A stretch of DNA of 64,000 bases from an uncultured Verrucomicrobiae bacterium (GTDB taxonomy: Bacteria > Verrucomicrobiota > Verrucomicrobiia > Limisphaerales > Palsa-1400). Position 1 is the first letter of the stretch. The number at the start of each line of letters is the position of its first letter. Below are positions 2,405 through 59,000 of this stretch, piece after piece. Position numbers and translations under genes: made by a program. The stretch is from assembly GCA_963702845.1 (NCBI GenBank), contig OY969763.1, positions 2,368,001-2,432,000 of the forward strand. The letters are read 5' to 3'. The notes under the pieces were generated by a model that saw only the letters and a program-made list of their open reading frames with translations, was not told where the DNA came from and searched no databases.

Positions 2405-4969
2405 TTAGTCCAGTTGCAGAACGCGATAGTACCGTTGCTGATCGACCGATGGCAGGTTGGTGAAAGACAGCGAACTCCCGGACGCGCGGAGGTCCAGTCC
2501 AATCTCGCGCCACTTCGCGCCGTTTAAGTCGAACTTGTACTGCACGCGATACGTTTTTCCAGAATACGAAGACCACGATAAAATTGCGGCGCTGTTTGTA
2601 ACCGCCGCCGTGATTAACACGGGCGCGGCGACAGGCACATTGAACGGTACAACGAGAATGTTGTTGTTCTCGTTTCCCTCGGCGAACCGATTGATGTCAT
2701 CGACGTTTGCGATGAGTTGATGCGCCCCGGCAGTGCCTGGCCAATAATTGACGCCATTTGGCCCACCATCCGCCGTCACCGTGATCGTTGCGCCTGCGGC
2801 GACTGAAGTTGAATAACCCGACGACCAACTAACAACGCCCCCCGAATCGATTGAGTATCCAACGCCAAGCGTGATCCCCGACGGGGTTGCTGCGCCGCCC
2901 TGATTTTTCACGGTCGCGCGAAAAACCACATTGCTTCCCACGCCAAGGGTTGCGGGCGTCCACGACACTCCGGTAAGGATGACATCGGGCAGCGCATTCG
3001 TGGCCGTTGCTGAAACTTGCGCCGAATTTGCACTTTCCCCTGCTCCGTTCACCGCAGAAACAACATAGTAATAAATGCCCGCTGCGACCGAAGTGTCGAC
3101 ATAAAGGGCGTCAAAAATATTCGTCGCGATAACCGAATACGGCCCACCATTGATCGACGCCCGCTTCACCCGAAACTGTGTTGCGCCGCTCGGCACGCTC
3201 CAATTGAGCGTGATATTTCCAGGACCAACAGCCGCGCTTAATCCCGCGGGGGCTTCCGGAATCGAATTAGTTGGATTAGCGACGATCTCGATCCCATTGC
3301 ACGCCGCATTGTTTAGAACAGTTATAAATTCGATTGTGATTCGGCCACCCGCATCTGGAATGGCGTTGAACTCCTGAACGTTCGCTTTGAACTGGCCACC
3401 TGCGGCTGCAAAAATATCAAATGAACTCAATACCGTTGCGCCATTGATCTTCACATTGAAAAGTCGTTGACCAGAACTGGTAAAGTAGACCTCGGCAAAA
3501 TGCAGACGCACCTTGTAACTGCCCGGCGCGAGGTTTGGAATCGTATACATCATCGTCTGATATCGCTGGGTTTGATAGACCGCCATCGGCGCAGGATTCA
3601 CCACGCCGTTCGTATCAACGCTCGTGGCAGTTGAGAACGTCAGTCCTCCAACAAAAAACGTGTCATCGATAAATGCTCCCTCTGCGCCGCCTGAACAGTT
3701 GATCTTCGGTGGTGCCGCTGCGCCCGAGACTTCGATGGAATTATCGCTTTCGCCAAAAGCATTCAACGCGCTCACCACGTAATAATAGGTCGCTCCGCTA
3801 AGCGCGTTGGTGTCCGTGAAAATCACGTTACTGACACCTTCAGTCACATTTCTTGCAATGACGGAATATGGTCCGCCAGCGATATTGCTTCGTTTGATGT
3901 TGTAAGTCGTCGGATTAAGAGGCGCATTCGTCCACGTTAACATCAGCAAGTTCGCGCCGTTCGCGCTGAGTCCCAGCGGAACGGGTGGCGCGTTTGTTGG
4001 ATCCAACAAATAGCGATGAAACCATCCTGTAATCGGTTCCAATTCGAACGATGGCCAACCCGACGAATCGCCGTTTTCGAATAGCGTGCAACCGAGCAGA
4101 TACGAATCCTGGCGCATCTGATAATCGAACCAGTTCAGCCAACGCTCATATTGACCGGCAGTCCCTCGTGCCTGCCAACCGGACGTGAACGGATCACCTG
4201 ACTGATCAACTCCACCCTCCGTCAGGATGAGCGGCATGTCATTCAAGTCAGGAAAGTTCTGCGCGAAATACGAGTAGAACTGTCGGTAACGTAGCGACCA
4301 CCAAATTTCCGCAGCAACGTCAGTCGAATATTGCACGGTGTAGGCGTGATAACTCCAGGCACCACCCACCGCCTTCGCCTGCCGCAACGCCGGCACGAAG
4401 TAACCCAGCAGCGAGAAAGGGTCGATGTTTCCCACTGAAATGCTACCGATACACGGCTTGATTCCGGCAGCGACGACTTTTGGCGTTAGATTCGTCCAGA
4501 ATTGATTAAGCCACTGCGACGCCTGCACCTGCTGATCGAAAGGATAACCAATCGTTGGCGTCTGCCCCTCGTTCGGTCCTTCCATGTAATCGATCAGTGC
4601 GCGATCCGATGCTCCGATCGAATTCAATGCCGGCTGAATAATGGTGCTCCAAAAATCATTAGCGCTCGCGGTGGGATCGTTCGTCATGAAGTATATCTTG
4701 GGCGAATACACCCGGACGACGATTTTCCCGGTTGGCACTTTCGTTTTGTAATCGCGCATCGCCTGCACCATGCCCGGCGGAAACCCTGAATCGAGCGCGA
4801 GCACTTTGAGCAATCGCGGCTTACCCGACACAATGTTTGAAGAACCAACGGTATATGCGTTGATCAGGTGCGCGCTCAACTTGCTGGCAGATTGCCCGCG
4901 CGCACAAATTCCGAACACGCAAAAAGCAATCACAAGAAGAGTGCACAGGTTGGGTTTGCGCAGGCTCAT
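2405..4969 (-). CDS. Secreted modular protein: putative clan GH-A catalytic domain + FN3 + malectin + FN3 + CARDB + C-terminal RYYRV domain
   Basis: Signal peptide; GPNEG/YHAY/LTEGG; two FN3 (YYYVVSA-N-GES); malectin (YKVRLHFAE...GQRLFNVKING); CARDB (PDV...TVKNQG...EGNENNN). Confidence 0.8.
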   Translation of the reverse strand: MSLRKPNLCTLLVIAFCVFGICARGQSASKLSAHLINAYTVGSSNIVSGKPRLLKVLALDSGFPPGMVQAMRDYKTKVPTGKIVVRVYSPKIYFMTNDPTASANDFWSTIIQPALNSIGASDRALIDYMEGPNEGQTPTIGYPFDQQVQASQWLNQFWTNLTPKVVAAGIKPCIGSISVGNIDPFSLLGYFVPALRQAKAVGGAWSYHAYTVQYSTDVAAEIWWSLRYRQFYSYFAQNFPDLNDMPLILTEGGVDQSGDPFTSGWQARGTAGQYERWLNWFDYQMRQDSYLLGCTLFENGDSSGWPSFELEPITGWFHRYLLDPTNAPPVPLGLSANGANLLMLTWTNAPLNPTTYNIKRSNIAGGPYSVIARNVTEGVSNVIFTDTNALSGATYYYVVSALNAFGESDNSIEVSGAAAPPKINCSGGAEGAFIDDTFFVGGLTFSTATSVDTNGVVNPAPMAVYQTQRYQTMMYTIPNLAPGSYKVRLHFAEVYFTSSGQRLFNVKINGATVLSSFDIFAAAGGQFKANVQEFNAIPDAGGRITIEFITVLNNAACNGIEIVANPTNSIPEAPAGLSAAVGPGNITLNWSVPSGATQFRVKRASINGGPYSVIATNIFDALYVDTSVAAGIYYYVVSAVNGAGESANSAQVSATATNALPDVILTGVSWTPATLGVGSNVVFRATVKNQGGAATPSGITLGVGYSIDSGGVVSWSSGYSTSVAAGATITVTADGGPNGVNYWPGTAGAHQLIANVDDINRFAEGNENNNILVVPFNVPVAAPVLITAAVTNSAAILSWSSYSGKTYRVQYKFDLNGAKWREIGLDLRASGSSLSFTNLPSVDQQRYYRVLQLD

Positions 4970-14664: not shown

Positions 14665-17442
14665 TCACGGCAGCGTCATCAGAACTCGATAAAACCGCGC
14701 CGGACCATTTAGCGGTAGTGAAACGTGCACGACATCGTTCGTCGCCAATATCGAACTGCCCACATTCCCCCAGCTATTCGAGGTCAGAGTAGTGGAAGAT
14801 TGGATTTGGTAAGAAGTATTCAGGAGGGCTGTCCAATTAAACGCTACGTTGCCACCGCCCACCGCTGCGGAATATAGAACCGGCGCAGGAAGCGCTTGCA
14901 CAGTCACATCATCGAGCCCAAATGCACCCGGCGTGTTGTTGAAATCAAATTCCAATGTCCCGCTGGTCCCCGACGGATAAACGATATACTGCATGTTCGT
15001 CCAACCGAACACCGCGAGATTCGTGCCCGTGAAAAGAGTCGCACCATTCCATTTCGCTGCGAAGCCGTTTGGCGTGGTATTGCCTCCATCGTCGGGAACA
15101 CCCGTCAGCGAGTACCAGATCAGCAATGGTTGGCCCGGAACCGTCGGAACGGTCTGCGACAATTTCCCATTATCAGGCCATTGCCCCAGGTAACCGCCAT
15201 AAAGTCCGGACCGAACGAACAACGTATCCGCCTTTCCCGGCAACGCCTGTTGTCCCGCAATTTCAGCATCATCGGCCGCAAGCGCGAAAGTAAGACTCGT
15301 ATCCCCAACGAGAGTCCAGTAATCAAGCGCGCCATTTTCAAATCCACCGTTGCCCACGTACAAATCAAATTGCCGATTCTGCGTCGTGCCGGCGGGGACG
15401 TTGTTGAAAGCAACGTTGCCGCTGGCGTGCGTGATCAAAAAGCTATTCGCATTCGCGTTGAGGCTCACCGTCACCGTCGTGCTGGCACCAGGATTCAACG
15501 TGCCGCCCGTCGCCGAAACATTCAGCCAATTCGCACTATTGTTCACACTCCACGTCAAAGCCGTCGAACCCGTGTTCGCGAGGGTGAAAGTCTGCCCCGT
15601 GACGCTAAATGGGCCGCCACTTTTGCCAAACGAAGTGAAACCTAGCGGAGACGTGACCCGCAATGTCTCCGAAGGCGGCGCCAGCAGCGCATTGAACAGA
15701 TTCGTGCTGATCGTTCCCAATCCCGTGCAAAGATCATAACCAGCGACAGCGGAATACTTCGTCGGGCTCGCTGCATTCGTGTTCCTACCGGTCGTGATGT
15801 CGTGGAAGCTCGAGAGATAATTCGTGCTCTTGCCGATCGCATAAAGCACCGGATTCATAAAGCCAATCGGCGGCTTACCGTCCGCCGCAGCCTGTTGATT
15901 CACCAGCGCCATGAAACCGGCCCACAACGGCGCGGCCAGACTCGTGCCCACCAGTGGAAAATCAATTGGGTCAAAAAACTCATAACCCCAGGTAACAGTG
16001 ATGTTGTCGGCTACCAATGCGACGTCCGGCACGTTGCGCATGGTTGAAGAACCTTGATTGGCCGCCATGTTGATACCTTGTTGCCATGACGGAATAGGGT
16101 AAGTCATGCTCACACCACCGCCCGATGCATACTCCGGCGAGCCCTGTGACGGATCAGCGGGTGTGAGCCAAACTGTTTCCGATTTGTAGAATCCGTTGGT
16201 ATCCGTCGTCAGTGAGGTTCCTCCGACAACCGTGATGTAAGGATCATCAGCCGGTTCATCAGTTGCCGACGTAAACGCACCGGAATCGCCGCTCGCCAGG
16301 AAAAAGCTCTGACCTTGCGCCGCGTATTGTTGGAAGATCTGCACTGTCGAAAGATTGATATCCATCCCGTACGAACAACTCAGTTGTTTGGCCTGATTAT
16401 CCGTAGCCATCCGATTCAGCACATCATTGATCTGGGCTGTCGTTGTCGGGTTCTGGATATAACCCGTCCCAAGCGGAGGCTCATCCAATGGGGTAGGTCC
16501 GATATACACCAAAACTTTGCTTAACGATGGCGCCATCGCGATCGCCATCTCGATATCGCCGGTGGTCTCCAGGGCATAAGACAGGTAACCATCCTGATCA
16601 AGCGCGTTCGAATCATCGTCCGTCCCGCCATCGACTAAAACCGATTCCACGGGGACGTACGGAAAAATAAAGGACTCATCTTCGTAAGCCTCGATATCCT
16701 GGATGGAGTAACCATAAAGTTCAAAAATCCCGACTGACTGTCCCTCGCCCTCCTGCGACAGGTCAGGCACGTAAGCGTCACGGAACTGATACCCTTGGTA
16801 AGGGCCGGTGTAAGTGCCGCTCCCGCCACCGCCTCCACCCCGCGGGCGGATTTTTGGAGACGTGCTCGACCGGTGTATCTTCGGACGCGGTGTCACATAG
16901 TTATCCAAACCACTGATCGCCAGCACCGGCGTCTTCAGCTCCAATGACGGCTCGACATCCGGTGAGAAGAATTCGCGATTCTCTTTCGGATGTTTGAACC
17001 TCTGCAAATGGACGTTAAACGCATTCTCGATGTCCATCACCGAACCGCTGACATCAACCAGCGTGCGGTTGGGATGCGCGTGGGTGACTTTCAGGTGATG
17101 GGCTTTCGCGAATTCAACCACCGACTGGTAATCCTCCGCGCTCGGCCCAAACGAAGCCGCAAACTCATTTGCTGTCAGAAAATGGCGAAAGTTCGGGCTG
17201 GACGGATTATAAACGTCTTCGAGGAGGTTTGTGAGCTGCTCCCGATTGCGCAACGGCAAACCGATCGTCACCTCCATGTGATGATTGGCCTCGAGCCTGC
17301 CCAGAGGGGAAAGTTTCTTTGTAATGTTGCGGACATGGCCGTGGAGCACCTGCGGTTGATCAGCCCCGGTTGCCGACGCGAATGGAACAGCCAGTGCCGA
17401 CAAAAGTGCTACGCCGAGAAGGATTTCTAATTTCATGTTCAT
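14665..17442 (-). CDS. Secreted S53 (sedolisin/kumamolisin) peptidase with prodomain, BACON-like and CBM-like domains and C-terminal RFYRV domain
   Basis: Prodomain (PSSPNFRHFLT..EFAASFGP), ETTGDIE, ASGDSG, RNVPDVA, GTSLAAPLWAG, GYDLCTGLG. Confidence 0.92.
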   Translation of the reverse strand: MNMKLEILLGVALLSALAVPFASATGADQPQVLHGHVRNITKKLSPLGRLEANHHMEVTIGLPLRNREQLTNLLEDVYNPSSPNFRHFLTANEFAASFGPSAEDYQSVVEFAKAHHLKVTHAHPNRTLVDVSGSVMDIENAFNVHLQRFKHPKENREFFSPDVEPSLELKTPVLAISGLDNYVTPRPKIHRSSTSPKIRPRGGGGGGSGTYTGPYQGYQFRDAYVPDLSQEGEGQSVGIFELYGYSIQDIEAYEDESFIFPYVPVESVLVDGGTDDDSNALDQDGYLSYALETTGDIEMAIAMAPSLSKVLVYIGPTPLDEPPLGTGYIQNPTTTAQINDVLNRMATDNQAKQLSCSYGMDINLSTVQIFQQYAAQGQSFFLASGDSGAFTSATDEPADDPYITVVGGTSLTTDTNGFYKSETVWLTPADPSQGSPEYASGGGVSMTYPIPSWQQGINMAANQGSSTMRNVPDVALVADNITVTWGYEFFDPIDFPLVGTSLAAPLWAGFMALVNQQAAADGKPPIGFMNPVLYAIGKSTNYLSSFHDITTGRNTNAASPTKYSAVAGYDLCTGLGTISTNLFNALLAPPSETLRVTSPLGFTSFGKSGGPFSVTGQTFTLANTGSTALTWSVNNSANWLNVSATGGTLNPGASTTVTVSLNANANSFLITHASGNVAFNNVPAGTTQNRQFDLYVGNGGFENGALDYWTLVGDTSLTFALAADDAEIAGQQALPGKADTLFVRSGLYGGYLGQWPDNGKLSQTVPTVPGQPLLIWYSLTGVPDDGGNTTPNGFAAKWNGATLFTGTNLAVFGWTNMQYIVYPSGTSGTLEFDFNNTPGAFGLDDVTVQALPAPVLYSAAVGGGNVAFNWTALLNTSYQIQSSTTLTSNSWGNVGSSILATNDVVHVSLPLNGPARFYRVLMTLP

Positions 17443-17600
17443 AGCAAAGCACGCTCGCCGCACCGCAAAAAGTCACTCCCGTAAATCAGCCTTGATGCTA
17501 CCCGCAAACCAAAAACGAATCAACGAATACACGCATCAGAAGTTGCTGATAGTTTCATCATTGCGAACACCCGCGTTTTATGTTCCCTTTCCGACGACTT

Positions 17601-18155: not shown

Positions 18156-18941
18156 ATGTCCCTCTCATTCACTTTTCTAGGCTCAGGCACTTCGCAAGGC
18201 GTGCCACTCATCGGCAAAGAGTATCCACCTGAGTTTCTCGCCAACCCAAAAAACAATCGCCTTCGTCCGTCCATCTACGTCGCCAGCGACAAGACCAAAC
18301 TGGTCGTCGACACCACGCCGGAGTTTCGCATCCAAATGTTGCGTGAGAAAATCATGTGGCTCGACGCCGTCGTCTTTACCCACTCGCACGCCGACCACAT
18401 CATGGGTTTGGACGACTGCCGTCGGTTCTGCGATATCCGCGAAGGTCGCCTGCCGATTTACGCGAACGAAGCAACCATGAACGATCTGAGACGCGTGTTT
18501 CGCTATGCGTTTATCGACGAGCCCATTCCCAAGGGCTACTTCATGCCCGACCCGCACATCGTCGATGGTCCGTTCACGATCGGCGATTTAGAACTGCAAC
18601 CGCTCGTTTTGCCACACGGCCGCGCGACCACGAACGGCTACTTGTTCATTCAAAACGGCAAGAAACAGTTCGCCTACATGAGCGATTGCAAAGAAGTGCC
18701 GCCGGATGTCATCGAAAAAGTCCGCGGCTGCGATGTGGTGGTTCTCGATGCGTTGCGCCGCAACGTTCATCCAACTCACATGTGCCTCGACGAAGCGCTC
18801 ACCGCTGCACGCCGCATTGCGGCGAAGCGGACCTATTTCACTCACCTCACCCACGACTACGATCACGACCTCGCCCAGGCTGAATTGCCGGACGGGGTTT
18901 GGTTTGCCTACGACGGGCTCAAAGTGCAGATTGCGTCGTGA
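18156..18941 (+). CDS. MBL-fold metallohydrolase, PhnP-like
   Basis: [46 protein letters not shown]. Confidence 0.9.
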
Positions 18942-26399: not shown

Positions 26400-28175
26400 G
26401 TGAATTTACTCGGAAAAACTTTCGGAGTGATCGTCGGTTCCGTAGCGCTCGCGGCGGCGACGCTCGCGCAGCCTGCTAATGATAATTTCGCGCAGAGACT
26501 GACTATCATCGGCACTAATATTGCCGTTTCCGGCTCTCTTTCCAACGCGACCGCCGAAGTTGGCGAACTGCTTCTTCCGGGGATTTCCAGCGGCCAGACC
26601 GCTTGGTGGACTTGGACTGCTCCATCAAACGGCATCGTCAACCTTTCCGTTTCTGCCACTAATTTCAACCCACTGCTGACTGCTTACACCGGCACCGATA
26701 TTTCAACTCTTCTCCTCGTCGCGAGTAACAACTATCAAATCTGCTATGCTGACGGCGCATGCGGGTGTCACTGGCGCGAACGCGACGGCACGACTTTCCA
26801 CGTCGCTCGCGGAGAGTCGTATCAAATCGCCGTGGATTCCGCGATTTGGACGGATGCTTCGATGGGAGAGCTGAGCATACCCGTAACCAACGACGAAGGG
26901 GTCGTGGATGGAGATTTGATGTATTGGGGGCCAAGCTTCAACACAAACGTTAATCCCGGTGGTGATTTGACGATGCAATTGCAGTTCACCCCCACGCCAC
27001 GGAACGATGACTTTGAAAATCGTGTTGCACTGTTCGGATCGCAAACCCGAACGCAAACGTCAAACGCTGGTGCGACAAAACAAGCAGGCGAACCTAATCA
27101 TCTTGGAAATCCGGGCGGCAGTTCCGTTTGGTTTTCGTGGACGGCACCGGCATCAGGGCGAGTGACCTTGTCCACAAATAACATTCCGCCCTATTTGCCG
27201 CCGTCTTGGACCGATGGTAACGGCGTCGACGTCATTGATGTTAGTATTGGGCCGCCGAGTTGTGGAGAAGCCATTGACCAAAACCCCCCGCCTGTTTTCT
27301 ATCCACTTTTGGCCGCTTATACAGGCATTGCTGTCGATTCGCTCGCATCGGCAAATTGCTTACCAATGTCACTCGAGGCATATCCCCACGCCGTGGAGTT
27401 CGATGCAATCAAGGGACAAACCTATCCGATTGCATTCGATGGCAATATGGGAACAACCGGCGACTTAACCATGTATCTCGCGCTGACTCGACCCGCGGTT
27501 AACGATAATTTCAAAGATCGCGTTCACCTCCACGGCGTTTATATCGCGGCCAATGGATTCAACGCTGGCGCAACACATGAAAATGGCGAGCCAATTGCGA
27601 ACCGCTCTACCGGCAAAAGTGTTTGGTGGTCCTGGACCGCGCCGGTCACAGGCACGGTCACGGTTAATTTAACCGGGAGTGACTATTCATTTCCTCTTGC
27701 TGTTTTCACGGGAAACAGCGTCTCCGATCTTACCCAAATCGCGACCGGGCAAGGCAACGCGTCGTTCAATGCCACTCAAGGAAAGGTGTATCAAATCGGA
27801 GTTTATGATGCTGCCGGATTGACGGGCCAAATTAAATTTACACTGACCGCCCCTGTAATTGAGCTGCCCCTTCTGCGCAATCAGAGCGCAAGTTGGATGA
27901 GACTTCTTTCCTTCAGAGCATCACCGGGACAAGTCGCACTTTTGCAGACACAGCGGGCGAACCGTTGGTGTAATGTAGCTGTCGCTCAATCGCGTTCAAC
28001 CGTGGTTTGGTTTGCTCTCCCCCGGAATAGCGATATGGGTAACTCTTATCGTGCCGTTGTTATCGACTACAATTCCGCCGCAATGCCTCTCGGCCATACG
28101 TTCGTGTCTGTTGATCACGCCATTCAACAAGGCGAGATCAATGCCGGTTACTTTCCCCCCGTGCCGTCGCATTGA
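26400..28175 (+). CDS. Secreted protein with three NDxF / WWxWTAP (PPC-like) repeats
   Basis: Signal peptide; PANDNF, PRNDDF, AVNDNF, each followed by W[WF][ST]WTAP. Confidence 0.8.
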   Translation: MNLLGKTFGVIVGSVALAAATLAQPANDNFAQRLTIIGTNIAVSGSLSNATAEVGELLLPGISSGQTAWWTWTAPSNGIVNLSVSATNFNPLLTAYTGTDISTLLLVASNNYQICYADGACGCHWRERDGTTFHVARGESYQIAVDSAIWTDASMGELSIPVTNDEGVVDGDLMYWGPSFNTNVNPGGDLTMQLQFTPTPRNDDFENRVALFGSQTRTQTSNAGATKQAGEPNHLGNPGGSSVWFSWTAPASGRVTLSTNNIPPYLPPSWTDGNGVDVIDVSIGPPSCGEAIDQNPPPVFYPLLAAYTGIAVDSLASANCLPMSLEAYPHAVEFDAIKGQTYPIAFDGNMGTTGDLTMYLALTRPAVNDNFKDRVHLHGVYIAANGFNAGATHENGEPIANRSTGKSVWWSWTAPVTGTVTVNLTGSDYSFPLAVFTGNSVSDLTQIATGQGNASFNATQGKVYQIGVYDAAGLTGQIKFTLTAPVIELPLLRNQSASWMRLLSFRASPGQVALLQTQRANRWCNVAVAQSRSTVVWFALPRNSDMGNSYRAVVIDYNSAAMPLGHTFVSVDHAIQQGEINAGYFPPVPSH

Positions 28176-31091: not shown

Positions 31092-31168
31092 AAAAACATG
31101 TCGCTTTTTTCACAGTAAAGGAATCAACATAACACCGCTCGTTAAATTCAAAGAGGAGGGATACGCGA
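31092..31168 (+). promoter_or_regulatory. Conserved upstream region, copy 2 (GGAAT-N16-GTT plus RBS)
   Basis: aaaaacatg...ggaatcaacataaca...cgttaaattcaaagaggaggg. Confidence 0.55.
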
Positions 31169-31996
31169 ATGCAACAAACCCAAAATAGCTGTCGTCGAGC
31201 CGCTTTTACTTTAATTGAGTTGCTTGTCGTTATTGCCATTATTGCAATCCTGGCTTTCCTGCTGTTACCGGTCCTCGGAAGAGCCAAAGTGTTCGCACAA
31301 CGCAAAGCGTGCATGGCAAATTTAAAGTCACTGGCTCTTGGCAGTAAAATGTATGCCGACGATAACCGCGGCAAGCTGGTGGCAAGCTGGCCGTTGGGGT
31401 GGAGCAATTATCCGGTCAATCCATATTCATGGTGTCCAGGCTGGGGCTCGACGGCGCCGCAAGACCTGACCTATGGGCCATCTCCGGAATATAGCTGCAC
31501 GAACGTTTACGCTATCCAACACGGTGCGATCTTTTCTTATGTCCAAAACGCCAAAGCTTTTCGCTGCCCAACCGACCAACGGCTAAGCGACGGCGTCCCA
31601 TTGGTTCGCAGCTACTCGATGAATGCCTGGATGAACGGGCGTAGCTCGGATCCTTCTGGAAATTCCACAACGTTTTTAACACCGGATGACGATGGCGATC
31701 TGACCTATACGTTTTTTCGCAAAGAAAACCAATTAACCAGCCCGTCGAAGTTATGGCTCTTAATCGATGAAGACGATAAGACGATCAACGACTCAATGTT
31801 CATGGTTTTTATGGGGGCGAACAATTACATCTGGGACCAGCCTACGCGACGACATGGCAACAATTACGAATTGGTTTTCGCGGATACGCATGTTGAGCCT
31901 ATGACGCTTGTGAATGGGACATCTGACTGGACAGGAGCCCCGACCAACAGGGACTGGGAAAATCTCAAGTCTCTCACCACGATTCCTCAGCAATGA
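31169..31996 (+). CDS. Prepilin-type N-terminal cleavage/methylation protein, H-X9-DT variant
   Basis: [42 protein letters not shown]. Confidence 0.92.
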
Positions 31997-41493: not shown

Positions 41494-41499
41494 AAACTG

Positions 41500-44668: not shown

Positions 44669-47600
44669 ATGCATTTCGAGTGTCGTGGCCTCGTCCTTTG
44701 CGCGCTGCTGGCCCTGTTCGCTCCGGCGCCCGTGCTCGCGCAACATTCCACGACCGATTGGAGCATCGCATCACTCGACAAGATTCTCGCGGGTGTCGCG
44801 CCCGGACAGAAGACCGCGCTCGTCGGCGACATGGAAATTCTGGTCACCAATCTGCGCGCATGGCGCGATGAACTGGCCGGCGCGCGAACACCGCGCAGCG
44901 CATTCGATGGCGTCGCGCCGATCTGGACTGCCGGCAACGTCTACTACCAATTCAGCAACAACGTTTCGGTCGCGAACCAGAAACGGTATGTCGACGGAAT
45001 TGCGGAATGGACGATGTTCGCCAACCTGCATTTTATTCCGCGCACAATGCAGACCAATTACATCACCGTTTTGGAAGACCCGACGCTGAGTGGAGGTCAA
45101 TCCTCCGTTGGCATGATCGGAGGTCAACAGTTTCTAAAGATCGGACCGGACGCGTGGAATCGCCCGACGATTTGCCACGAAACCGGCCACGCGCTTGGCC
45201 TCATCCACGAACATCAACGTTCCGACCGTGACTCGTTCGTTGCTGTTCTGACCAACAATCTGGCCAATGGGTCTAACGACGGAAATTTCATCAAGCTATC
45301 CAATTCGAAAAACCAGGGTGCCTACGATTTTCTGTCAGTCATGCATTACAACCGGAATTCGTTTTCCAAAGACCAATCGTTGGACACGCTCGAACCACTG
45401 GCGCCCTACGTCCAATACATCGACATCATGGGACAAAAGTTTGATCCGGTGTTGAGCGTCAGTGATCGCGCCGGAATGGCAGCAATCTACGGAGCCGGCC
45501 CGACACTCAGCGCCGTTGTCACCAACACACAAGACAGCGGTGTGGGCAGTTTGCGGGCTGCGATGTATTACGCGATCGATCATCCCGGCACGACCGTCAC
45601 GTTCAACATTCCGACTTCGGATCCTCGCTACACGAACGGCGTTTATACGATCCAGCCGACCGATGGTTTCCCAAGCCTGCTCAACAACACGACGATCAAT
45701 GGCGCGTCGCAAAGCGGAAATCCGAGTGGTCCGTCGATCCAACTCAGCGGCGCACTCGCCCAGCCACCGGGAGTATTTCCAAACGGCCTCCATCTCGCCG
45801 GCACCAATTCGACGATCAATCACTTAGTCGTAAACGGATTCGCCGGGACTGGTATTCTGATTGATGGCACCACGGCTGTCGCAAACACGGTCACGGGCTG
45901 TTATCTTGGGATCGACCCCACCGGCTCGTTTCCAATCACAAACGGGTTATGCCCGCTGACAATCCAAAACGGTGCTCGTAGCAACATCATCGGTGGCCTC
46001 ACTGTAGCTGCACGCAATATTATTTCCGGCAGCCCATTTCAGGGCATGACCATTCGCGATCCCGGCACTGACTATAATGTGGTTGAAGGAAATTACATCG
46101 GCCTGAATAGCGTCGGCATCGGATCGTTGCCGAATACTTGGTCTGGGTTACAAATCTTCGGCGGCGCGCGTTCGAACATCATCGGCGGCGCGAATTTCAA
46201 CGCCCACAATGTGATCTCCGGTAACACCCTTCAAGGGCTCGTCATCTCCGACACAAACTCAGACGGCAACATCGTTATGGGAAACTATATTGGCCTCACA
46301 CCTGCCGGGACGTCTTCGATTCCAAATGGTTGGGCTGGCATCGATATCTTCGGCGGAGTTCGCGCAACTTTGATCCAGGGCAATTTCGTATCCGGCAATT
46401 CACTCCAGGGCATCGCTATCTCCGGCCTTGGGACGAGCGGGAATTTAGTCCAGGGAAATTACGTGGGCCTCGACGCCCTCGGCCAAAACGCGGTCCCGAA
46501 CGGCTGGTCCGGTGTGAACTTCTTCAACGGCGCGAAATCAAATCTTGTCGGCGGTTTGAGCCCCGCACTTCGTAACGTTATTTCCGGAAATTTAAATCAA
46601 GGCGTCGTCATGAACGATCCCGGCACGAGCGGGAACGTCGTTCAAGGGAATTACATCGGCGTGCAATCCTAACGGCACAGCGGCAATCTCCAACGGATGG
46701 GCCGGCGTCGAACTCTTCAACGGACCTGGCGGCAACTTGATCGGCGGCACCACGGCTGCGGCGCGAAACATCATTTCTGGCAACGGCATTCAAGGAGTCA
46801 GCTTCAACGGGGTGTCAAATAATGTCGTGCAGGGGAATTTCATTGGGGTGGACGTAAACGGGTCGACGCGGATTCCGAATCTTGCGCCGGGTGTCCTCTT
46901 ATATAATGGCGCGCAATCTAATGCCATTGGAGGTCTCCTCTCCGGCGCGGGAAATGTCGTTTCTGGAAACGCTAATCAAGGCGTTGCCATTTTTGATCCA
47001 GGCACGAGAAACAATCTCGTCGCCGGGAATTTGATTGGCGTCACTGCCAATGGCACGACAGCCCTTTCTAATAACTGGTCCGGGGTTGAACTTGGTAACG
47101 GCGCGCAATCGAATCTCATCGGCGGCGGGCCTGGCGCGCGCAATACGATTTCCGGCAACGGTAATTACGGCGTGCTCATTGGCAGTTCCGGGACGAGTTT
47201 CAATGTCGTGCAGGGAAACAGCATTGGCTGTGAATGCCACAAGCATGTCGGCGGTGCCGAATTCCTTCGCTGGCGTGATTCTTTTTGGCGGTTCTCAATC
47301 AAACCTCATTGGCGGCACAATTGCGGGCAATGCAAACATCATTGCGAACAACTTGTCGGATGGCGTGCAGCTTTTTGACGCGACGACAGTCGGCAACACC
47401 GTTCGTGGCAACTCAATCTTCAGCAATAGCGGCGCAGGTTTGAACCTTTACAACAACGCAAACAACAATTCCAGCACGCCGACGTTGACTTCGGCGATCA
47501 TCGGAACGAATACGACTATTCGCGGAACTTTATTCAGCTCACCCAACACAACCTATCATTTGGATTTTTATTCGAGTCCTGCGACATCGCCACAAGCAAT

Positions 47601-48157
47601 GGTCTATCTCGGCTCGCGTGACGCAACAACCGCCAACAACTCATCTGTCACATTCACAAATTCATTCTCCGCACTGATTCCCGCTCGGACGCGTCATCAC
47701 CGCCACTGCGACTGATCTTCAAGGCAACACCTCAAGTCTTTCTGCCGCGGTGACAGTCCAAGGCACCAGCACGGTGAACGACGGCATTCCCGACGCCTGG
47801 CGCACCCGTTATTTTGGCGGCAGCGGCACCACCACCAACAGTCAATCCTGTGCAACGTGCGATCCTGATCATGACGGGATGAACAATTTCCAGGAATTCG
47901 CCGCCGGCACGAACCCGACCAACGCGTCCAGCGCGCTCGTTCTCACCGAATTCAACACCAACCAACTCGGCGGCATCACCGCATTCAATTCGTCATCGGG
48001 CGTCGTGTACAGTTTGGAATATCGCAATAATTTTAATGTGCCCGGTTGGTCGGTGTTATCGGACCAACTCATCGGCACCGGCACAAATATCGTCGTCGTC
48101 GACCCCGCTTCCGCCACAGTCCGAAACCGATTCTACCGCGCACGAGTACTTTGGTGA
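44669..48157 (+). pseudogene. Secreted M12A (astacin) metallopeptidase + beta-helix repeats + Ca-binding-like motif + RFYRA domain; split by three +1 frameshifts (about 1161 aa repaired)
   Basis: HETGHALGLIHEHQRSDRD and SVMHY Met-turn; RNxISGN / VQGNYIG repeats continue across frames at about 46663, 47229 and 47686; may be intact in vivo. Confidence 0.85.
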
Positions 48158-48258: not shown

Positions 48259-48645
48259 ATGAAGCTGCTGAAAATTTACAAGTGCCTCTGCGATGAAACG
48301 CGGCTGCGCATTTTGCACCTGCTCTCTCAAGGCCCCCTCTGCGTGTGCCATTTCCAAAACATTCTCCGGACGCCGCAGGTCGCCGTTTCCAAGCACCTGG
48401 CCTATTTGCGCAAACATGGTCTGGTAACAGCTCAGCGCCATGAGCAGTGGATGGTTTACCAATTGGCGGCCAAGCGCTCGAGTGAACTGCACCTGCAGTT
48501 GCGATGTTTGCAAGATTGCGTCCAGTCGCATCCGATATTTCGAGAGGACCTCAAACGGCTCAAAAAAATCCGGTGCGAGTGTGATTGGGTGAAAAAGATC
48601 GCCCCGACCAAAAAAACGAAAGTATCAAATTTAAAAACGGCATGA
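48259..48645 (+). CDS. arsR: ArsR/SmtB transcriptional repressor
   Basis: DETRLRIL, LCVC metal motif, VSKHLAYLR; heads the ars operon. Confidence 0.92.
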   Translation: MKLLKIYKCLCDETRLRILHLLSQGPLCVCHFQNILRTPQVAVSKHLAYLRKHGLVTAQRHEQWMVYQLAAKRSSELHLQLRCLQDCVQSHPIFREDLKRLKKIRCECDWVKKIAPTKKTKVSNLKTA

Positions 48646-49109
48646 AGTTATCTGAATTGAAAAAGGTGTTGGCGGAACACTCGACCAAAAACGTCCGGTT
48701 TGTATTGCCGATCGGCAGCAAGGTTCCCCCGCACGCCCATGTGACGGAGGTGGCCCGGATTGATAAGCGATTTGTGGACTGCGGCGGAACGTTTCGGACG
48801 GAATCGGTTTGCCGGCTGCAGACTTGGTTTCAAAATGATACGGACCATCGACTGAGCGCAGGCAAGTTGCTCGGGATCTTGGAAAAAGCCGGTTCGTTCC
48901 TCGGCGAAGATGATTTGGAAGTGGACGTGGAGTATGAAGCGCCGTTCATTTCGCAGTTCCCGATCAGTGCGGTCGAAGCTGACGAAGAAGCGCTGGTGGT
49001 GAACCTCGGGATTAAACGCACGGCCTGCCTTGCGGAAGACAGGTGCTTGCCCCCAAAGATCCGAACGTTCCAGCTAATCCCAAGTTTCAAATCCACAAAG
49101 TGCTGCTGA
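48642..49109 (+). CDS. DUF6428-like Cys-rich protein
   Basis: ATGA overlap; [21 protein letters not shown]-terminal CC. Confidence 0.75.
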
Positions 49110-49116
49110 CATATTT

Positions 49117-49563
49117 ATGACCAAGAAACCGACGGTGTTAGTTCTGTGTACCGGCAATTCGTGTCGGAGCCATCTTGCGGAAGGAATTCTGCGGGCTGCG
49201 GCTGGCGATATTCTCGACGTGCAGAGCGCCGGTTCAAATCCGGCGGGCTATGTTCATCCGCTTGCGATCAAAGTCATGACCGAAATCGGCATCGATATCT
49301 CGAAGCATCGTTCAAAGCACTTAAATGAATTTCTGAATCAGCCGATCGAAACGGTGATTACGGTTTGTGGAAACGCGGACCAGGCGTGCCCGATTTTTCC
49401 CGGGCAGGTAAACCGCCATCACTGGGGGTTCTACGATCCGGCAAAGGCCGAAGGGACGGACGAGCAGAAGTTGGTGGCATTTCGACAGGTGCGGGATGAA
49501 ATTCGCCGCGTTTTTGAGGCGTATGCGGCAGGGAGAAAAGATCAAAAGAATGGTTCGTGTTAA
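49117..49563 (+). CDS. arsC: Arsenate reductase, thioredoxin-coupled LMW-PTP type
   Basis: [22 protein letters not shown]. Confidence 0.93.
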
Positions 49564-49574
49564 GAACGAGATTT

Positions 49575-50669
49575 ATGGCGACCGAAATTGAATTTGCGAA
49601 CAAGCAATCCGAACGCCCTCAGTCGAAACGTCTGGGCTTTTTTGAACGTTACCTGACCGTGTGGGTATTGTTGTGCATGGTGGTCGGGGTTGCATTTGGC
49701 AAGTTGATGCCGGATGTGACGGCAGCGTTGAGTAAGATGGAGTTCGGACAAGGGTCGCGGGTAAATGTGCCGATTGGAATTCTGCTGTGGCTGATGATCT
49801 ATCCAATGATGTTGAAGGTGGATTTCGGCGCTATTGGCGGCATTGCACGACGGCCCAAAGGGTTGGCGGTGACGTTGTTTGTGAACTGGCTGGTCAAGCC
49901 GTTCAGCATGGCGCTGCTGGCGTGGGTTTTTATGAAGCACGTATTCGCGCCGTGGATCGATCCGGAAACGGCGAAGAACTACACGGCGGGATTGATCATT
50001 CTGGCGGCGGCTCCGTGCACAGCGATGGTGTTCGTGTGGTCGTATCTGACGGATGGCGATCCGGCTTACACTCTCGTCCAGGTGGCGGTGAATGATTTGA
50101 TCATGTTGGTGGCGTTTGCGCCGATCGTGATGATCTTGTGCGGCGTGGCGCATGTGGTCGTGCCGGCGAAAGTGCTGATAACTTCGGTCGTCGTTTTCAT
50201 CGTCGTGCCGCTGAGCGCCGGATGGCTGACGCGTTGGCTGTTGTTGAAGTCGCACGGTAAGGGTTGGTTTGAGGGAACATTCCTGCCGAAGTTTCATCCG
50301 GTGATGATCGGAGCGTTGCTGCTGACGTTGGTTTTAATATTCGCGTTTCAAGCGGAGAATTTGACGAAGCGTTGGTTTGCGGTCGTGCTGTTGGCTGTGC
50401 CGATTATCATTCAGGTGTATTTCAACTCCGGCCTAGCCTACCTGCTGATGAAGGCATTGAAGGTCGAACATAGCGTGGCCGCGCCAGGCGCTTTGATTGG
50501 AGCGAGCAATTTTTTTGAGTTGGCGGTAGCGGTCGCGATCACTTTGTTCGGATCCAATTCTGGCGCGGCGCTGGCAACGGTGGTCGGCGTTTTGGTTGAG
50601 GTTCCAGTGATGTTGTCGGTTTGTGGTGTGTGCAATCGAACGCGCGGCTGGTTCGTGAAGGAGGCTTGA
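49575..50669 (+). CDS. acr3: ACR3 family arsenite efflux transporter
   Basis: FFERYLTVW, MIYPMM, NWLVKPFSM, APCTAMVFVW, SNFFELAVA, VEVPVML. Confidence 0.95.
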   Translation: MATEIEFANKQSERPQSKRLGFFERYLTVWVLLCMVVGVAFGKLMPDVTAALSKMEFGQGSRVNVPIGILLWLMIYPMMLKVDFGAIGGIARRPKGLAVTLFVNWLVKPFSMALLAWVFMKHVFAPWIDPETAKNYTAGLIILAAAPCTAMVFVWSYLTDGDPAYTLVQVAVNDLIMLVAFAPIVMILCGVAHVVVPAKVLITSVVVFIVVPLSAGWLTRWLLLKSHGKGWFEGTFLPKFHPVMIGALLLTLVLIFAFQAENLTKRWFAVVLLAVPIIIQVYFNSGLAYLLMKALKVEHSVAAPGALIGASNFFELAVAVAITLFGSNSGAALATVVGVLVEVPVMLSVCGVCNRTRGWFVKEA

Positions 50670-53015: not shown

Positions 53016-56000
53016 ATGAAAAAGTTTTTCTCCTTTTCCGTTTCCGTTTTGCTCGCGCTGTTGCCCACGGCAAAGGCGCAGAATCTGACTGTATCAACTT
53101 TAGGCGGGCAATGCCGGACAGGCTAGTGCCGATGGCACCAGCAGCAACGCCCGGTTCAATAACCCGTGGGGCGTTACCGTTGATGCCAGCGGCAACGTTT
53201 ATGTCGTCGATACTGACAGTCACATTATTCGCAAAGTGACCAGTGGCGGAACTGTCACCACCATCGCCGGCACACTCGGCGTTTCGGGCACGAACGACGC
53301 GACGGGCACCAGCGCAAAGTTCAATTCGCCTCAGGGTATTGTCGTTGACGCGGTCGGCACACTTTACGTGACAGATACTGGCAACCACACCATTCGTAAG
53401 ATTACTTCGGGAGGGGTTGTCACAACTCTGGCAGGCGCACCGACAATTTCGGGCACGACTGACGGCAGCGGTAGCAATGCACGGTTCAATCAACCTGAAG
53501 GCATCGCGATCAATGCGGCTGGAACGATTCTATATGTCGCCGATACCGGCAATCACACAATTCGCAGCGTGACGACCGGCGGAACTGTTACGACTTACGC
53601 CGGAATCGCCGGAACGCCGGGCAGCGCGAACTTAACTGGAACGAGTGCTTCGTTTAACACGCCTCAAGGTGTCGCAGTTGATTCGTCCGGCAACGTGTAT
53701 GTGGCTGATACGGGTAATCAATTGATTCGATTGATTTCTGCTGGAGCAGTCGTGTCCACGATTGCCGGCGTGTCAGGCACGATTGGCAGCACCGACGCTC
53801 CAGCGTCAGCGAACACGCTATTTTGGGATCCAATCGGCATCGCAGTTGATGGTTCGGGAAATGTGTATGTCGCCGACTCCTTCAATAATACGATTCGTAA
53901 GCTAACTTCAGGGACGAGCACCACGCCAGCCGGGTCCGCAGGAAACGTGGGCAGCGCCGATGGTAGCGGTGCTACGGCACGTTTTTGGCAACCGCAGGGT
54001 GTTGCAGTGGATATTTCTGGAAACGTTTACGTTGCCGATGGCGGCAATGGAACAATTCGCAAAATAGTTGGCACCACGGTGAGCACGTTAGCGGGCTCGC
54101 CAACGATTGGCAGCGCCGATGGCAACTCGACTACGGCGCGTTTTTTTTTCCCGTCAGGCGCGTGCATCGATAGCAGCGGCAATGTTTATGTTGCCGACAC
54201 GTTAAATCACACGATTCGCACGGTTACTTCTGCTGGCGTGGCCAGCACCCTCGCTGGAACAGCCGGTGTGTCGGGATCGACAGATGGCAGCGCTGGCTCC
54301 GCTCGATTCAATGCTCCACAAGGTATTGCTCGCGACGGCTCTGGGAATCTCTATGTAGCCGATACGGCCAATCATACCATCCGCAAAATTGTCGGCACAA
54401 CCGTAAGCCTGTTCGCTGGAACCGCTGGAACCAGCGGCGTAGCCGACGGCAACGTAAACGCCGCGCAATTTAATTTTCCGCACGACGTCGCGGTTGAGGC
54501 ATCCGGCAATGTTTACGTTGCCGATACCTGGAATCACACGATTCGTAAAATCACCACCGGCGGCGCCGTTTCAACTCTTGCCGGACAAGCCGGAATTTTC
54601 GGTGACAGTGACGGCACAGGCGCAAACGTAGGAACGAACGGCGCACGTTTTTATGCACCCGGCGGTCTCACCGTCGATGCTACCGGGAATGTTTATGTCG
54701 CGGACACTTATAATCATATCATTCGCAAGATTACTCCAGGCGGTGTCGTGAGCACTCTGGCCGGTTTAGGCGGTTTGCTTGGAACCGTCGACGGCACAAA
54801 TAACGTTGCTCGATTTTTCTTCCCGCAAGCAATCGCTGTTGATGGTAGCGGCAATTTGTTCGTGCTTGATTCAGGCAATCATACGATACGTAAATTGACG
54901 GCCTCGGGAACCAATTGGGTTGTAACAACGGTCGCGGGCGCAGCGAATCTGAGCGGAACCGTGGATGGGACTGGCCTCGGCGCACGTTTCTTTGCTCCCG
55001 CAGGATTAGGCATCAATTCCTCCGGCACACTCGCCGTTGCTGATCTCGGCAATAATACAATTCGCACCGCTTCGGCAGCATCTGGTTCGGCTCCCACTAT
55101 TACTCAACAACCGCAATCGCAGACTGTCATAAAGACGCAAACGGCGTCATTCAGTGTGACCGCGACCGGCACCGGACCGCTTGGTTACCAATGGTATTTC
55201 AACTCGGGCGTAATCGCGGGTGCGACGGCTTCGACTTACACCAAATCAAATATTCAAACGACGGATGCTGGGTCGTATTCGGTGACGGTCACGAACGCAG
55301 GCGGCGCCACGCCGAGCGTGAATGCCATTTTGACGGTCACCGTTCCGCCTTCCATTACAACGGGGCCGCAAAGCCAAACGGTCAGCGCGGGCGCGAGCAC
55401 TTTGTTTACTGTCACGGCGGCTGGCACGGTTCCGCTGAGTTACCAATGGTTTTTTGGGGCAGCAGCGATTTCGGGAGCAAACGCGTCCGCTTACACTCTC
55501 AACAACGCCCAAGCTGCTAATGTGGGCAGTTATTCAGTGGTGGTGACAAACATTGCGGGGACGACGACTAGCGGCAATGCCACACTGTCAGTGACTCCGG
55601 CTGGCCCGACAATCACCGCTCAACCGCAAAGCCAGTCTGTCGCTCAGAGTTCGACCGCGACTTTGAGTGTCACCGCCAGTGGAACTACTCCCCTTTCCTA
55701 TCAGTGGCGGTTTAATAATGTGACGATCGGCGGAGCAACGGGCTCAAGTTACACCATCGCAAGTGTGCAGCCGGCAAACGCAGGAAGTTATTCGGTTGTC
55801 GCGAGCAATGCTATTAACACCGTAACCAGTTCGACCGCGACGCTGACGATTTTGGTTCCACCGGTCATCAGCACCCAGCCACAAAGCCAACTGACGTTTG
55901 TGGGGAGCAACGTGACCTTCACTGTCGGCCTCTCGCAAGGAACGAATGTCACTTATCAATGGCAGCAGAACGGCAGCGCTATTTCCGGTGCAACGCTATC

Positions 56001-59000
56001 GAGTTACTCGATTTCGCCGGTCCAGTGGGCAAATGCTGGTTCATATTCGGTTGTGGTCACGAATGGCGCAGGGAGCGCGACGAGCACAACCGCGATGCTG
56101 GTGGTGCAACAAACGCCGCAAAATTTCTTCGACGGATTCGAAACGTATAACTTGGGTTGCATCGATAACAACTTCAGCGGCGGCCCCAATGCAAATCCAG
56201 CGACGGACCCTTGGTGGGGTTTGTCGACATCGGTACCAAAAGGCGGGGTCACGAACGCAAGCACTGGGATCACTCCTCACGCAGGCAGTCAGATGTTAGG
56301 CTTGGTGAATACCGCCCAAGCCGTCCAACAGGACTACATGAATCTCATGTCCCGACTCAATTCCGGATCCAATTATTACGGCAACATCCTGTGCGATTGG
56401 TGGTTTTATGATCCTTACGGTAGCGCTGCCAGCGGCGCAACCAATTACCAGGACTATCTCGCTCTCTACAATTCGCCCAATGCGTCGCCCACTTCCGATT
56501 ATACGACCCTGGTTCTCGGCACTCCGACTCAACGGATGTCTCTAGGAGCATTCAACCAGTCGACAGGATACAATTACTCAAATTACCAGGCGCGCATCAT
56601 CGGAGGCACCGGCGGCACTTTCGGTTCCGGCAACAGTTGGTATAACACCACCACTGTGCGCTCGGTTGGCTGGCATCACGCGCGAATTCTACTCGGTATC
56701 GCAGACGTCTCAAATAATGCGCCAGTTTGGATGTACATTGACAACATGACCAATGCAGCGGTTGCGTCGATTACCGACGGCGCTTTCGGTATCAATTTAA
56801 TCGAGTTGAACCACGAAATGTTCAAAGCTGGATTTTATGGTTACTTCGACGACTTAAACTTCCAGGTGGCAAACGATCCATGGATCGTTGAACAGCCTCA
56901 AAACGCGACGATCGTTGCGGGCAATTCGACAACGTTGACGACGGTTGCGATCGGCACGGGCTTTCAGTGGCAATTGAACGGCAATCCTATTTCGGGCGCA
57001 ACTAGCAGCGCATATACGATCCCTTCCGCCACTGCCAACGACTTGGGATCTTACACGTGCGTGATCACGGGCACGAACGGAACGATCAGCACGTCTGTAG
57101 CGGTTCTCACGGTGTTTGGGCCGCCAGTTATCAACGGGCAGCCGGCAAATCAAACGGTAAACCAGGGACAAGATGCGACATTCAATGTTTCGGCAATTGG
57201 CAACCCACCCTTGAGCTATCAATGGAGATTCAATACCACCCCAATCGGCGGAGCTAATTCGAGCAGCTACACGGTCCACGGTGCGACGAATGGAAACACC
57301 GGTAGTTACACAGTGGTCGTGAGCAATGGTTCCGGTAACACCACCAGTTCCACGGCGACATTGACTGTGATCATCCCGCCGTCAGTCACCGGCCAACCTT
57401 CGAGCACGACGGTCAGCCAAGGTCAGAATGCAATTTTCACAGCTACGGCAAGTGGCACGGCTCCGCTGGCTTATCAATGGCGATTCAACAACGCGGACAT
57501 TTCGGGAGCGAATTCCAGCAGTTACACAAAGACCAGCGCACAACCGGTGGATGCTGGCACCTATTCAGTTGTGGTGACGAATACAGCGGGAGCCGCAACA
57601 AGTTCCGGTGCGGTTCTCACTGTCATTGTGCCGCCTTCGATTACTTCACAACCCGTCAGTGTAGCAGTGATGGAGGGTTCGACCGCGAGCTTTAACGTCA
57701 CCGCGACCGGCACCAGCCCGAACTATCAATGGCGCTTCAACGGAACACCGATCGCCAACGCCACAGCGACGTCGTACCACAAGGTGGGAGCACAAGCCGG
57801 AGATGCAGGTAGTTATTCGGTGGTTGTTTCAAACAATGCCGGCACGGTAACGAGCGGTAACGCAATGTTAACAGTCGTTTCGACCGCAACCGCTTTGAAC
57901 AGCATCACAGCCAATCCAGACGACACCGTCAGCTTGGTTTGGCAGGTGACGGCGAACACAAACTACACGCTTCATTACAAGACCAATCTGTTGGATACGC
58001 AATGGAACGATATCAACAATTTTACGCCGACGGGATCGACGCTGACCGTGTCTGATGGGCCGGTCGCCGACGTGCAACGTTCATTTCAATTGGCGTCGGC
58101 CCAGGCGGTGAGCGAAATCGGTGGCTTGTTGCGACTGACACTGCTCGGCAATTCCGACAACATTGTTTCAATCCCATTCGGTCGCGCGCCTGCTATCTCG
58201 CTGCTGGTCGGATCGACTTCCGCAAACGTTATCACTGTCAGCAGTTCACCGGGTTGGACCGCGAACCAGTTCGTCTATTCTTCGGGAACGCAGTCGAACA
58301 ACTACTTTGTTCGTCTCACGTCGGGAGCCGCCGCTGGACGCATTTATCCGATCACCGCAAACGGCGCGAATACTTTAACGATTAACCTCGGCAACGATTC
58401 TTTGGCAGTGGTCGCGCAGAATGATGCGTTGTCGATTGAAGCTTATTGGACGCTCAACACGGTGTTCCCGAACGGCACTGGCGTAAACGTTTCGCCAACC
58501 GTTGGCAATCGTAACACCGAAGTTCTGATCCCTGACCTGACGTCGGCGGGAATCAATTTGAGCGCGTCGAAAGTCTACTTCTTTAACGCCGGAATTTGGA
58601 AGCAAGTCGGTGGGGGCGGCACGAGCCACAATGACGATGCGTTGCAGCCGAACACCTTCCTGATTGTGCGGCACAATGTCGCGACGAACACGGTATTGAC
58701 CGCGGCGGGGCGCGTGATTTCGTCGGCGCTTACCATGACCTTGCTGACGCAAACGGGCACATTGCAGGATAATTGCATCGGCCTGCAGCGACCTGTTGCT
58801 GTTTCGCTAAACAACTCAGGATTAATCAGCAGCGGCGCATTTAGCCAAAGTCCCACGCCCGGCAACAGAACAGATGAGTTGCTGACGTTCGACAACAGCG
58901 TTGTCGCTCGAAACAAATCCTCGTCGGCGTCATATTATTATTGGAGCAACGCGTGGCATCAGGTTGGGGCGGGCACCACAGATGTCGGCACGAATGAGAT

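Follow-up and report, generated by a model that had tools for sequence, protein, structure and literature searches.

An apparently truncated FN3-like C-terminal tail and a predicted strand-donating partner suggest a surface docking system in Verrucomicrobiota

Introduction

Several bacterial systems attach or export unrelated proteins by way of a shared C-terminal module. In chaperone-usher pili, the tip adhesin FimH ends in a beta-sandwich without strand G, and FimG completes this domain with its N-terminal extension (PMC3960871). The Elr/WxL donor-strand pilus of the Gram-positive Enterococcus uses the WxL fold, a membrane chaperone (ElrE) and operon-linked tips, of which about 1% are catalytic (10.64898/2026.10.17.759780). 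In type IX secretion (by the T9SS), the type A C-terminal domain (CTD; TIGR04183/PF18962) is a beta-sandwich of seven strands and about 80 residues, which PorU cleaves after passage through SprA (PMC12618676). We describe a comparable C-terminal module, here called the tail, in a window of 64,000 nucleotides from an uncultured Verrucomicrobiae bacterium (assembly GCA_963702845.1, contig OY969763.1, positions 2,368,001 to 2,432,000, forward strand). The module appears to be a fibronectin type III (FN3) domain that stops one strand short and is completed by a second protein, the partner.

Verrucomicrobiota are major polysaccharide degraders in soil, peat and water, and the papers searched give no explanation of how they hold large enzymes at the cell surface. 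Our preferred reading, to which we assign a probability of about 0.62, is a donor-strand docking system for the surface display of tail proteins rather than an export signal of the T9SS type. In this reading, the partner links the tail proteins to a PEP-CTERM protein encoded directly downstream. Full-text searches of the literature, which reached neither subscription papers nor supplements, brought up no account of the tail, of the partner or of the two as a pair, and the snap-on system of tail, partner and anchor is likely undescribed.

The tail domain and its carriers

An earlier note, made from the letters of the window, had reported a domain of about 70 residues with the ending R[FY]YR[VA] at the C-terminus of three secreted proteins, with an internal copy in a fourth and a degenerate one in a fifth, and proposed it as a candidate lineage-specific signal for secretion or anchoring. 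All five segments are present at the positions given there. They are listed here with the associated features.

2414..2650, minus strand: tail at the C-terminus of an 854-aa glycoside hydrolase (GH)-like/FN3/malectin/CARDB protein (2405-4969), independent E-value (iE) 3e-17
14677..14907, minus strand: tail at the C-terminus of an S53 (pro-kumamolisin/BACON) peptidase (14665-17463), iE 6e-17
47918..48148, plus strand: tail at the C-terminus of an astacin/beta-helix/TSP3 protein (44669-48157), iE 5e-10
57859..58095, plus strand: internal tail of an NHL/Ig giant protein (53016-59088), iE 5e-13
58096..59064, plus strand: TIGR02597 domain, a homologue of the free-standing donor, fused directly behind the giant's tail, 262.7 bits at a cut-off of 50
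58105..58131, plus strand: segment after the giant's tail, predicted to fill the FN3 G-strand position in cis
27858..28076, plus strand: degenerate tail of a PPC-repeat protein (26400-28175), recognised via homologues

Structure and complex were predicted with the GH tail (2414..2650). A profile seeded with the five segments was iterated (iE<1e-3) against 47,959 stop-to-stop open reading frames (ORFs) of the genome, which is a single contig of 6.03 Mb and 89.8% complete. The profile grew through 39, 88, 147 and 156 to 160 domains in 159 ORFs, and the best match in the reversed-ORF control reached an iE of 0.85. The tail is a genuine domain. Its length of about 75-80 residues slightly exceeds the earlier figure.

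The least clear of the five copies is that of the 26400 protein, which had been called degenerate. The segment alone gives no score against the tail profile, and the window copy continues for some 30 additional residues beyond the motif. The label nevertheless holds, because 90 of the 120 listed homologues carry the tail C-terminally and the profile of the family aligns with the tail profile (hhalign 90%, E 1.4e-6). The claim that all five proteins have signal peptides is borne out in so far as signal-peptide-like N-termini can be recognised by eye. The astacin gene is split over four frame pieces, and the giant has its signal peptide at 53016 in another frame than its body, with a break near 53105; for these two we infer the connection of N- and C-terminus, since the genes are frame-broken. 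Such breaks are numerous genome-wide, and those in the window are probably assembly indels.

The position of the tail is strongly biased, as the earlier note had proposed to check. Out of 160 copies, 135 end at most 5 and 138 at most 15 residues before the stop, while 20 lie more than 30 residues away. Of 117 public proteins found with the profile, 109 carry a copy no more than 15 residues from the C-terminus; this set also has 20 internal matches, many of them classical FN3 domains with a G strand of their own behind them. A search for ordinary FN3 domains in the genome of the window gave seven matches, and none of the six that could be mapped lies within 100 residues of an end. The ending itself is looser than first described. 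The strict form R[FY]YR[VA] occurs in only 24 of 138 terminal copies, whereas [FY][FY]R is found near the end of 96 of them, against 18 of 4,217 other genes. The three positions of the F/Y-Y-R motif are conserved in 72%, 77% and 81% of the copies, and in 129 copies its arginine is located 2-10 residues before the end of the protein.

Tail ORFs are also enriched in exported-type N-termini. A crude signal-peptide heuristic is positive for 126 of 159 tail ORFs compared with 709 of 1,247 others, and a second count gave 109/159 versus 594/1,599. Twenty of the 50 tail ORFs without a signal overlap an upstream ORF on the same strand, the pattern expected of frame-broken genes.

Curated families do not cover the domain. 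A Pfam scan of 42 tails gave nothing above cut-off and no family matching more than one member; PF00041 matches a single tail below cut-off (E 0.055), and an NCBIfam scan of four window segments found no model. In the ESM Atlas, the best named cluster scores 0.82 and is a lead only. The strong C-terminal bias, the exported-type cargo and the lack of a curated family are together in favour of a sorting or attachment tag, as had been suggested.

The analogy to the T9SS fares less well beyond the shared C-terminal tag. No match to PF18962 or TIGR04183 was found among 42 aligned tails or four window segments; the genome search with these models was empty, with a control that was likewise silent. 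PorV was not found in this 89.8% complete genome by a search that gave a signal in the control genome, and SprA gave no match, nor did its control. Moreover, the predicted partner is a soluble strand donor and not a barrel. Surface attachment is better supported for the tail than an export signal.

In a sample of 200 Verrucomicrobiota genomes, in which kin are not independent, 80 have the tail. Its distribution is phylum-wide and patchy, so that lineage-specificity in a narrow sense does not hold.

Predicted fold and the missing strand

AlphaFold2 models the tail as a six-stranded sandwich with a mean predicted local distance difference test score (pLDDT) of 91.6. The best structural matches are FN3 domains, with Z up to 7.9 and a root-mean-square deviation of 2-3 A over about 70-77 residues. 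The FN3 alignments end at strand F, which corresponds to the conserved F/Y-Y-R motif of the tail. Because the chain ends 2-10 residues past the arginine, there is no room for a G strand after the motif. The tail is therefore predicted to be an FN3 sandwich that stops after strand F.

A model of the giant's tail together with its TIGR02597 domain (pLDDT 79.6, predicted template modelling score 0.78) extends this picture. Here FN3 chains align 13-18 residues further, through their G strand, to model residues 75-86. The aligned ranges for the tail alone and for the fusion are as follows.

4u49_A: residues 22-94 with the tail alone, 22-107 with the fusion
1cfb_A: alignment end at 692, then 707
5z06_B: alignment end at 280, then 294
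4yfe_B: alignment end at 404, then 417

The longer alignments with the downstream segment suggest that the start of the TIGR02597 domain provides the missing strand in cis. The remainder of the TIGR02597 part has no clear fold match, which is not evidence of a new fold. An insert in this part (within 57859-59088, model residues about 105-191) resembles phage tail-tip or baseplate domains at middling scores (8gtc_P, Z 8.1; 8vjh_D, Z 7.6).

The earlier note had held that membership in an FN3/Ig family without terminal bias would speak against a signal. An FN3-like fold is what we find; the predicted truncation and the observed terminal bias point the other way. The confident model of the tail on its own could also be read differently, namely as a self-sufficient module, a six-stranded derivative of FN3 that is stable by itself and has a glycan or lipid of the surface as its ligand, with the link to the partner going back to a common ancestor that was split in two. 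The cross-matches of the tail profile to FN3con and to natural FN3 domains are in agreement with such a module, and the evidence from the partner, to which we turn now, bears directly on it.

The partner and its predicted pairing with the tail

Among the 20 far-internal tails, 13 sit 324-331 residues from the end and are directly followed by a domain of TIGR02597, a Verrucomicrobium paralogous family. The genome has 14 copies of TIGR02597, 13 of them directly behind a tail; the fourteenth follows an FN3 domain that is apparently complete, as judged by eye. A motif search for the putative donor strand behind a signal peptide revealed one clear free-standing gene, G000:C1:353834-354472, the only such copy in this genome; the mature protein corresponds to 353897-354469.

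Homologues of this free-standing partner are widespread: 1,974 were retained among 2,509 candidates, with 4,486 clusters at 50% identity. Their most conserved stretch is an N-terminal VYSxNxVGY, with V25, S27, N29, V31 and G32 near-invariant, and this donor strand is present in 117 of 120 short representatives. The free-standing partner matches no Pfam or NCBIfam model, TIGR02597 itself included. Profile comparison nevertheless indicates homology between the partner family and TIGR02597 (hhalign 99%, E 2.5e-18) when more diverse alignments are used; the first comparisons had given a probability of 0.2. In good agreement with this, two ORFs are matched by both profiles, and 15 of 18 free-standing TIGR02597 proteins have a similar N-terminal strand. 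PDB sequences gave no match to the partner (best E 0.87), a phage collection gave none either, and its ESM Atlas neighbours are hypothetical proteins throughout. For TIGR02597, the literature searched reports neither a function nor a link to tail or PEP-CTERM genes. Many partner homologues come from short contigs (1.0-1.4 kb) that match the two-gene operon in approximate size and may be assembled transcripts.

Complex prediction for the free partner and the GH tail gave interface scores (ipSAE) of 0.87, 0.89 and 0.88, compared with 0.13 for the best of three controls. At least 95% of the contacts agree between runs, and the partner has a pLDDT of at least 79. The mark used for ipSAE is reached by 116 of 157 solved complexes and by 2 of 215 mismatched pairs, a benchmark that is roughly applicable with the alignments used. 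In the predicted interface, partner residues 24-35 run antiparallel to tail residues 72-81 (strand F) and touch strand A, while the conserved tail residues Y75 and L43 pack on V119, P140 and Q141 of the partner, of which V119 and P140 are conserved. PDB searches returned no similar complex. The model is not independent of the fusions, because natural fusions may have taught the pairing.

From the 150 best partner representatives, we obtained 25 multi-domain proteins with 65 internal partner domains. A tail precedes 25 of the 30 internal domains that have the donor strand, compared with 2 of the 35 that lack it; repeats within a protein are not independent in these counts, and the miscalls P0128, P0148, P0174 and P0193 were left in. 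The F-strand motif and the donor glycine are 15-24 residues apart, mostly 16-17, and in some proteins (P0131, P0198) tail and partner alternate three or four times. Taken together, it appears very probable that the partner completes the tail by strand complementation, a step that is common to three of the four explanations considered here.

One of these three is that the partner is an escort for export. As a chaperone or shuttle similar to FimC or PorV, it would complete the tail, deliver it to an outer-membrane translocon and be released, while the PEP-CTERM protein keeps it at the inner membrane. The structural evidence fits equally well, as does the co-occurrence given below, and one free partner for about 140 cargoes would be similar to PorV, which serves all type A CTDs (PMC12618676). 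However, 13 proteins of this genome carry the partner as a permanent fusion behind the tail, and elsewhere the two form chains, a pattern that fits an adaptor that stays in place better than an escort that is recycled. The predicted strand is also antiparallel to strand F, as in donor-strand exchange, and not parallel as the strand of a chaperone (PMC3960871).

A second arrangement with the same chemistry would be a pilus-like fibre. Here the partner would polymerise to a shaft with tail proteins as its alternative tips, on a base formed by the PEP-CTERM protein, in the manner of chaperone-usher or WxL pili. The logic would be that of FimH and of the WxL tip adhesins (PMC3960871; 10.64898/2026.10.17.759780), and tandem partner domains do exist (P0122, P0126, P0138). 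These repeats are without the donor strand, though, so that the partner seems not to accept its own strand. P0122, P0126, P0132 and P0138 have four to six tandem partner domains without donor strand, followed by a terminal tail or tail-like segment, and are candidate scaffolds.

Co-occurrence across genomes

In the phylum sample, the partner or TIGR02597 was found in 62 of 200 genomes, comprising 54 of the 80 with a tail and 8 of the 120 without. A wider partner profile added 9 of 26 tail-positive misses and none of 34 tail-negative genomes searched again, which brings the figures to 63/80 and 8/120. Within family f5, tail and TIGR02597 mark the identical 5 of 15 genomes, and within f6 the identical 1 of 17. 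The partner occurs in 23 of 30 close relatives; the labels of relatives are Verrucomicrobiota, many of them Limisphaerales or Pedosphaera. Of the tail-positive genomes, 78 of 80 have an exosortase, compared with 64 of 120 others, and this genome has two.

For a self-sufficient tail one may point to the 17 tail-positive genomes in which no partner was detected. The matched presence of both elements within families argues against it. Furthermore, conservation in free-standing partners, which have no tail in cis, is highest in the donor strand, and this strand has mostly gone from internal partner domains that no tail precedes. We consider this explanation very unlikely.

The operon, the putative anchor and secretion loci

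In 28 of 30 loci of the phylum sample, the gene directly downstream of the free-standing partner encodes a PEP-CTERM protein and has about 180-250 codons; the remaining two loci stop at contig edges. A GTDB scan gave 74 loci (60 with room for a downstream gene, 9 without, 5 fusions), and the PEP-CTERM gene follows directly in 55 of the 60, or 83 of 88 loci with room in total. All four downstream genes that were scanned reach PF07589 above cut-off, and the protein shows the PEP motif, a transmembrane helix and a basic tail.

In this genome, the partner is followed by two close PEP-CTERM paralogues (G000:C1:353834-355678; L061:9834-11724), each closed by an identical GC-rich, terminator-like hairpin of 22 nt. 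The putative anchor domain spans 354423-355058. Such a site follows the PEP-CTERM gene and is missing between the partner and the first PEP-CTERM gene. A pattern search found only four plausible PEP-CTERM genes in the genome, so that the adjacency is not due to their abundance. In P0226, partner and anchor domains alternate (anchor matches E 2e-25 and 2e-23). In two further ORFs (G000:C1:3511786-3512607 and L149:3061-3723), an anchor-type domain is present and a tail, or a segment resembling one, takes the place of the PEP-CTERM; they are possible extension or branching subunits.

No third gene is conserved within 2.5 kb across 104 partner loci, and the conserved neighbours of the operon thus include no barrel, chaperone or usher. 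A GspC-like gene behind the operon of this genome is not kept in other loci and was discarded. The lack of a conserved chaperone or usher at these loci adds to the absence of a donor strand from tandem partners, and a pilus-like fibre appears highly improbable. The lack of a conserved barrel gene there also weakens the escort, for which the four clear secretin loci of the genome, two of them flanked by tail genes, can be cited. On balance we regard an escort as unlikely, and surface docking via a retained partner is preferred.

Two of the secretin loci have GspK-like genes nearby. At G000:C1:205018-220654 (L044), three tail genes flank an operon with pilin-like, PilN/PilO-like and secretin genes, the secretin being frame-broken; a second secretin region with tail genes spans 3972113-4000367. 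A type II secretion-like operon at G000:C1:1053946-1065921 (L045) has two adjacent GspD-matching genes, one for the N-terminal and one for the secretin part. Profiling of type II secretion with PF03934, along the lines of the earlier note, was uninformative, as it gave a signal in 9 of 14 controls. Pilin-like genes were considered as partners and dropped: of the 72, 15 have a tail gene within 300 bp, compared with 4.5% of other genes, a proximity that is only modest because a shift null gave a mean of 7.4 and a maximum of 17. Two of these 72 prepilin-motif ORFs are neighbours in the window (30417-31996).

Elsewhere in the window, 18899-20488 encodes a TIGR03790 family protein with a TPR end, a family that we take to be limited to exosortase-bearing genomes. 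At 48585-50669, DUF6428, a low-molecular-weight phosphatase (ArsC-like) and an SBF/ACR3-type transporter form an arsenic-resistance-like cluster between two secreted-enzyme genes.

Discussion

We propose the following order of events. A cargo starts with an N-terminus resembling a signal peptide and stops 2-10 residues past the FYR motif of strand F, both of which can be read from the sequence. The free partner would insert its residues 24-35 between tail strands F and A, with the conserved F/Y and L of the tail predicted to pack on the conserved V119 and P140 of the partner. In 13 cargoes of this genome, a partner homologue is already fused behind the tail. The partner would then bind a domain of roughly 130-160 residues in the PEP-CTERM protein encoded downstream, and exosortase processing, as presumed from PEP-CTERM biology, would anchor this protein in the envelope. 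The parts may pass the outer membrane via a type II-like secretin system of the genome, which is the weakest step. The outcome would be some 140 different enzymes and adhesins at the cell surface, docked onto a PEP-CTERM protein that exosortase has anchored. Exosortase processing for extracellular placement has been proposed for PEP-CTERM proteins (PMC1569441; PMC12188702), and type II secretion brings MYXO-CTERM and GlyGly-CTERM proteins to the surface (PMC11980579).

Several observations weigh against surface docking. The complex prediction may echo the natural fusions and is no demonstration of binding, and the missing strand is deduced from strand counts and aligned ranges at middling Z (7-9). 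Seven far-internal tails have no partner domain behind them. At E<=1e-3, 17 of 80 tail-positive genomes have no partner, the tail-rich G062, G089 and G092 among them, and 8 tail-negative genomes have weak partner matches; of the 120 negatives, just 34 were searched with the wider profile, and related genomes do not count as independent. About 140 cargoes per single free partner gene would demand high expression, of which the codon-bias proxy gives no sign: the partner ranks 359 of 3,596 and the anchors are low. The putative binding of partner and anchor is suggested by gene order and one fusion protein, and the downstream PEP-CTERM proteins belong to several families that do not align with each other. 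Finally, a study of Akkermansia detected PEP-CTERM proteins in intracellular fractions more than in outer-membrane ones (PMC4960237).

A broader version would be a phylum-wide plug-and-socket display, consisting of dozens to hundreds of split-FN3 enzymes, an adaptor of the TIGR02597 family and a PEP-CTERM base, extended or branched by tandem-adaptor scaffolds and by base-tail hybrids. We see the chances of this version as even. The analysis offers a candidate two-gene machine with an interface at residue level. For TIGR02597, and likewise for one conserved class of PEP-CTERM proteins, it puts forward a function for the first time. The tail profile would flag the surface proteome of uncultured genomes, and the natural split-FN3 pair could become a tool for protein docking.

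Comparison with known systems

With chaperone-usher tips, the tail proteins would share a payload and a C-terminal beta-sandwich without strand G that is completed, antiparallel to strand F, by another secreted protein. They differ in that the fold is FN3-like instead of the pilin Ig fold, about 140 unrelated enzymes and adhesins genome-wide carry one and the same type of acceptor, and the presumed anchor is a PEP-CTERM protein. There is no evidence of a polymer. Neither a chaperone nor an usher is among the conserved neighbours of the partner, a statement that refers to the loci only, as the genome was not searched for usher families. The Elr/WxL pilus is alike in its invariant C-terminal attachment module with variable payloads, its donor-strand chemistry and its enzyme-processed anchor, which is LPxTG/sortase there and would be PEP-CTERM/exosortase here. 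In contrast to that system, the host is a diderm, and the cargo is scattered over the genome and often enzymatic.

The type A CTD of the T9SS is likewise a C-terminal beta-sandwich on many unrelated signal-peptide proteins with one shared receptor. The tail differs from it by six predicted strands instead of seven and by its presumed completion in trans. Cellulosomes, too, bring together many enzymes with a common C-terminal docking module, a surface-anchored receptor and tandem receptor scaffolds. Dockerins are calcium-binding helical repeats, whereas here docking would proceed by beta-strand complementation; a link in sequence was not noticed, and no search was aimed at one. The tail-partner system would work like tip attachment in chaperone-usher and WxL pili and resembles the T9SS only as a shared C-terminal tag, and we file it under neither. 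If the proposal is true, the system would play in this lineage the role that the cellulosome and T9SS surface attachment play elsewhere, and it would share no parts with them.

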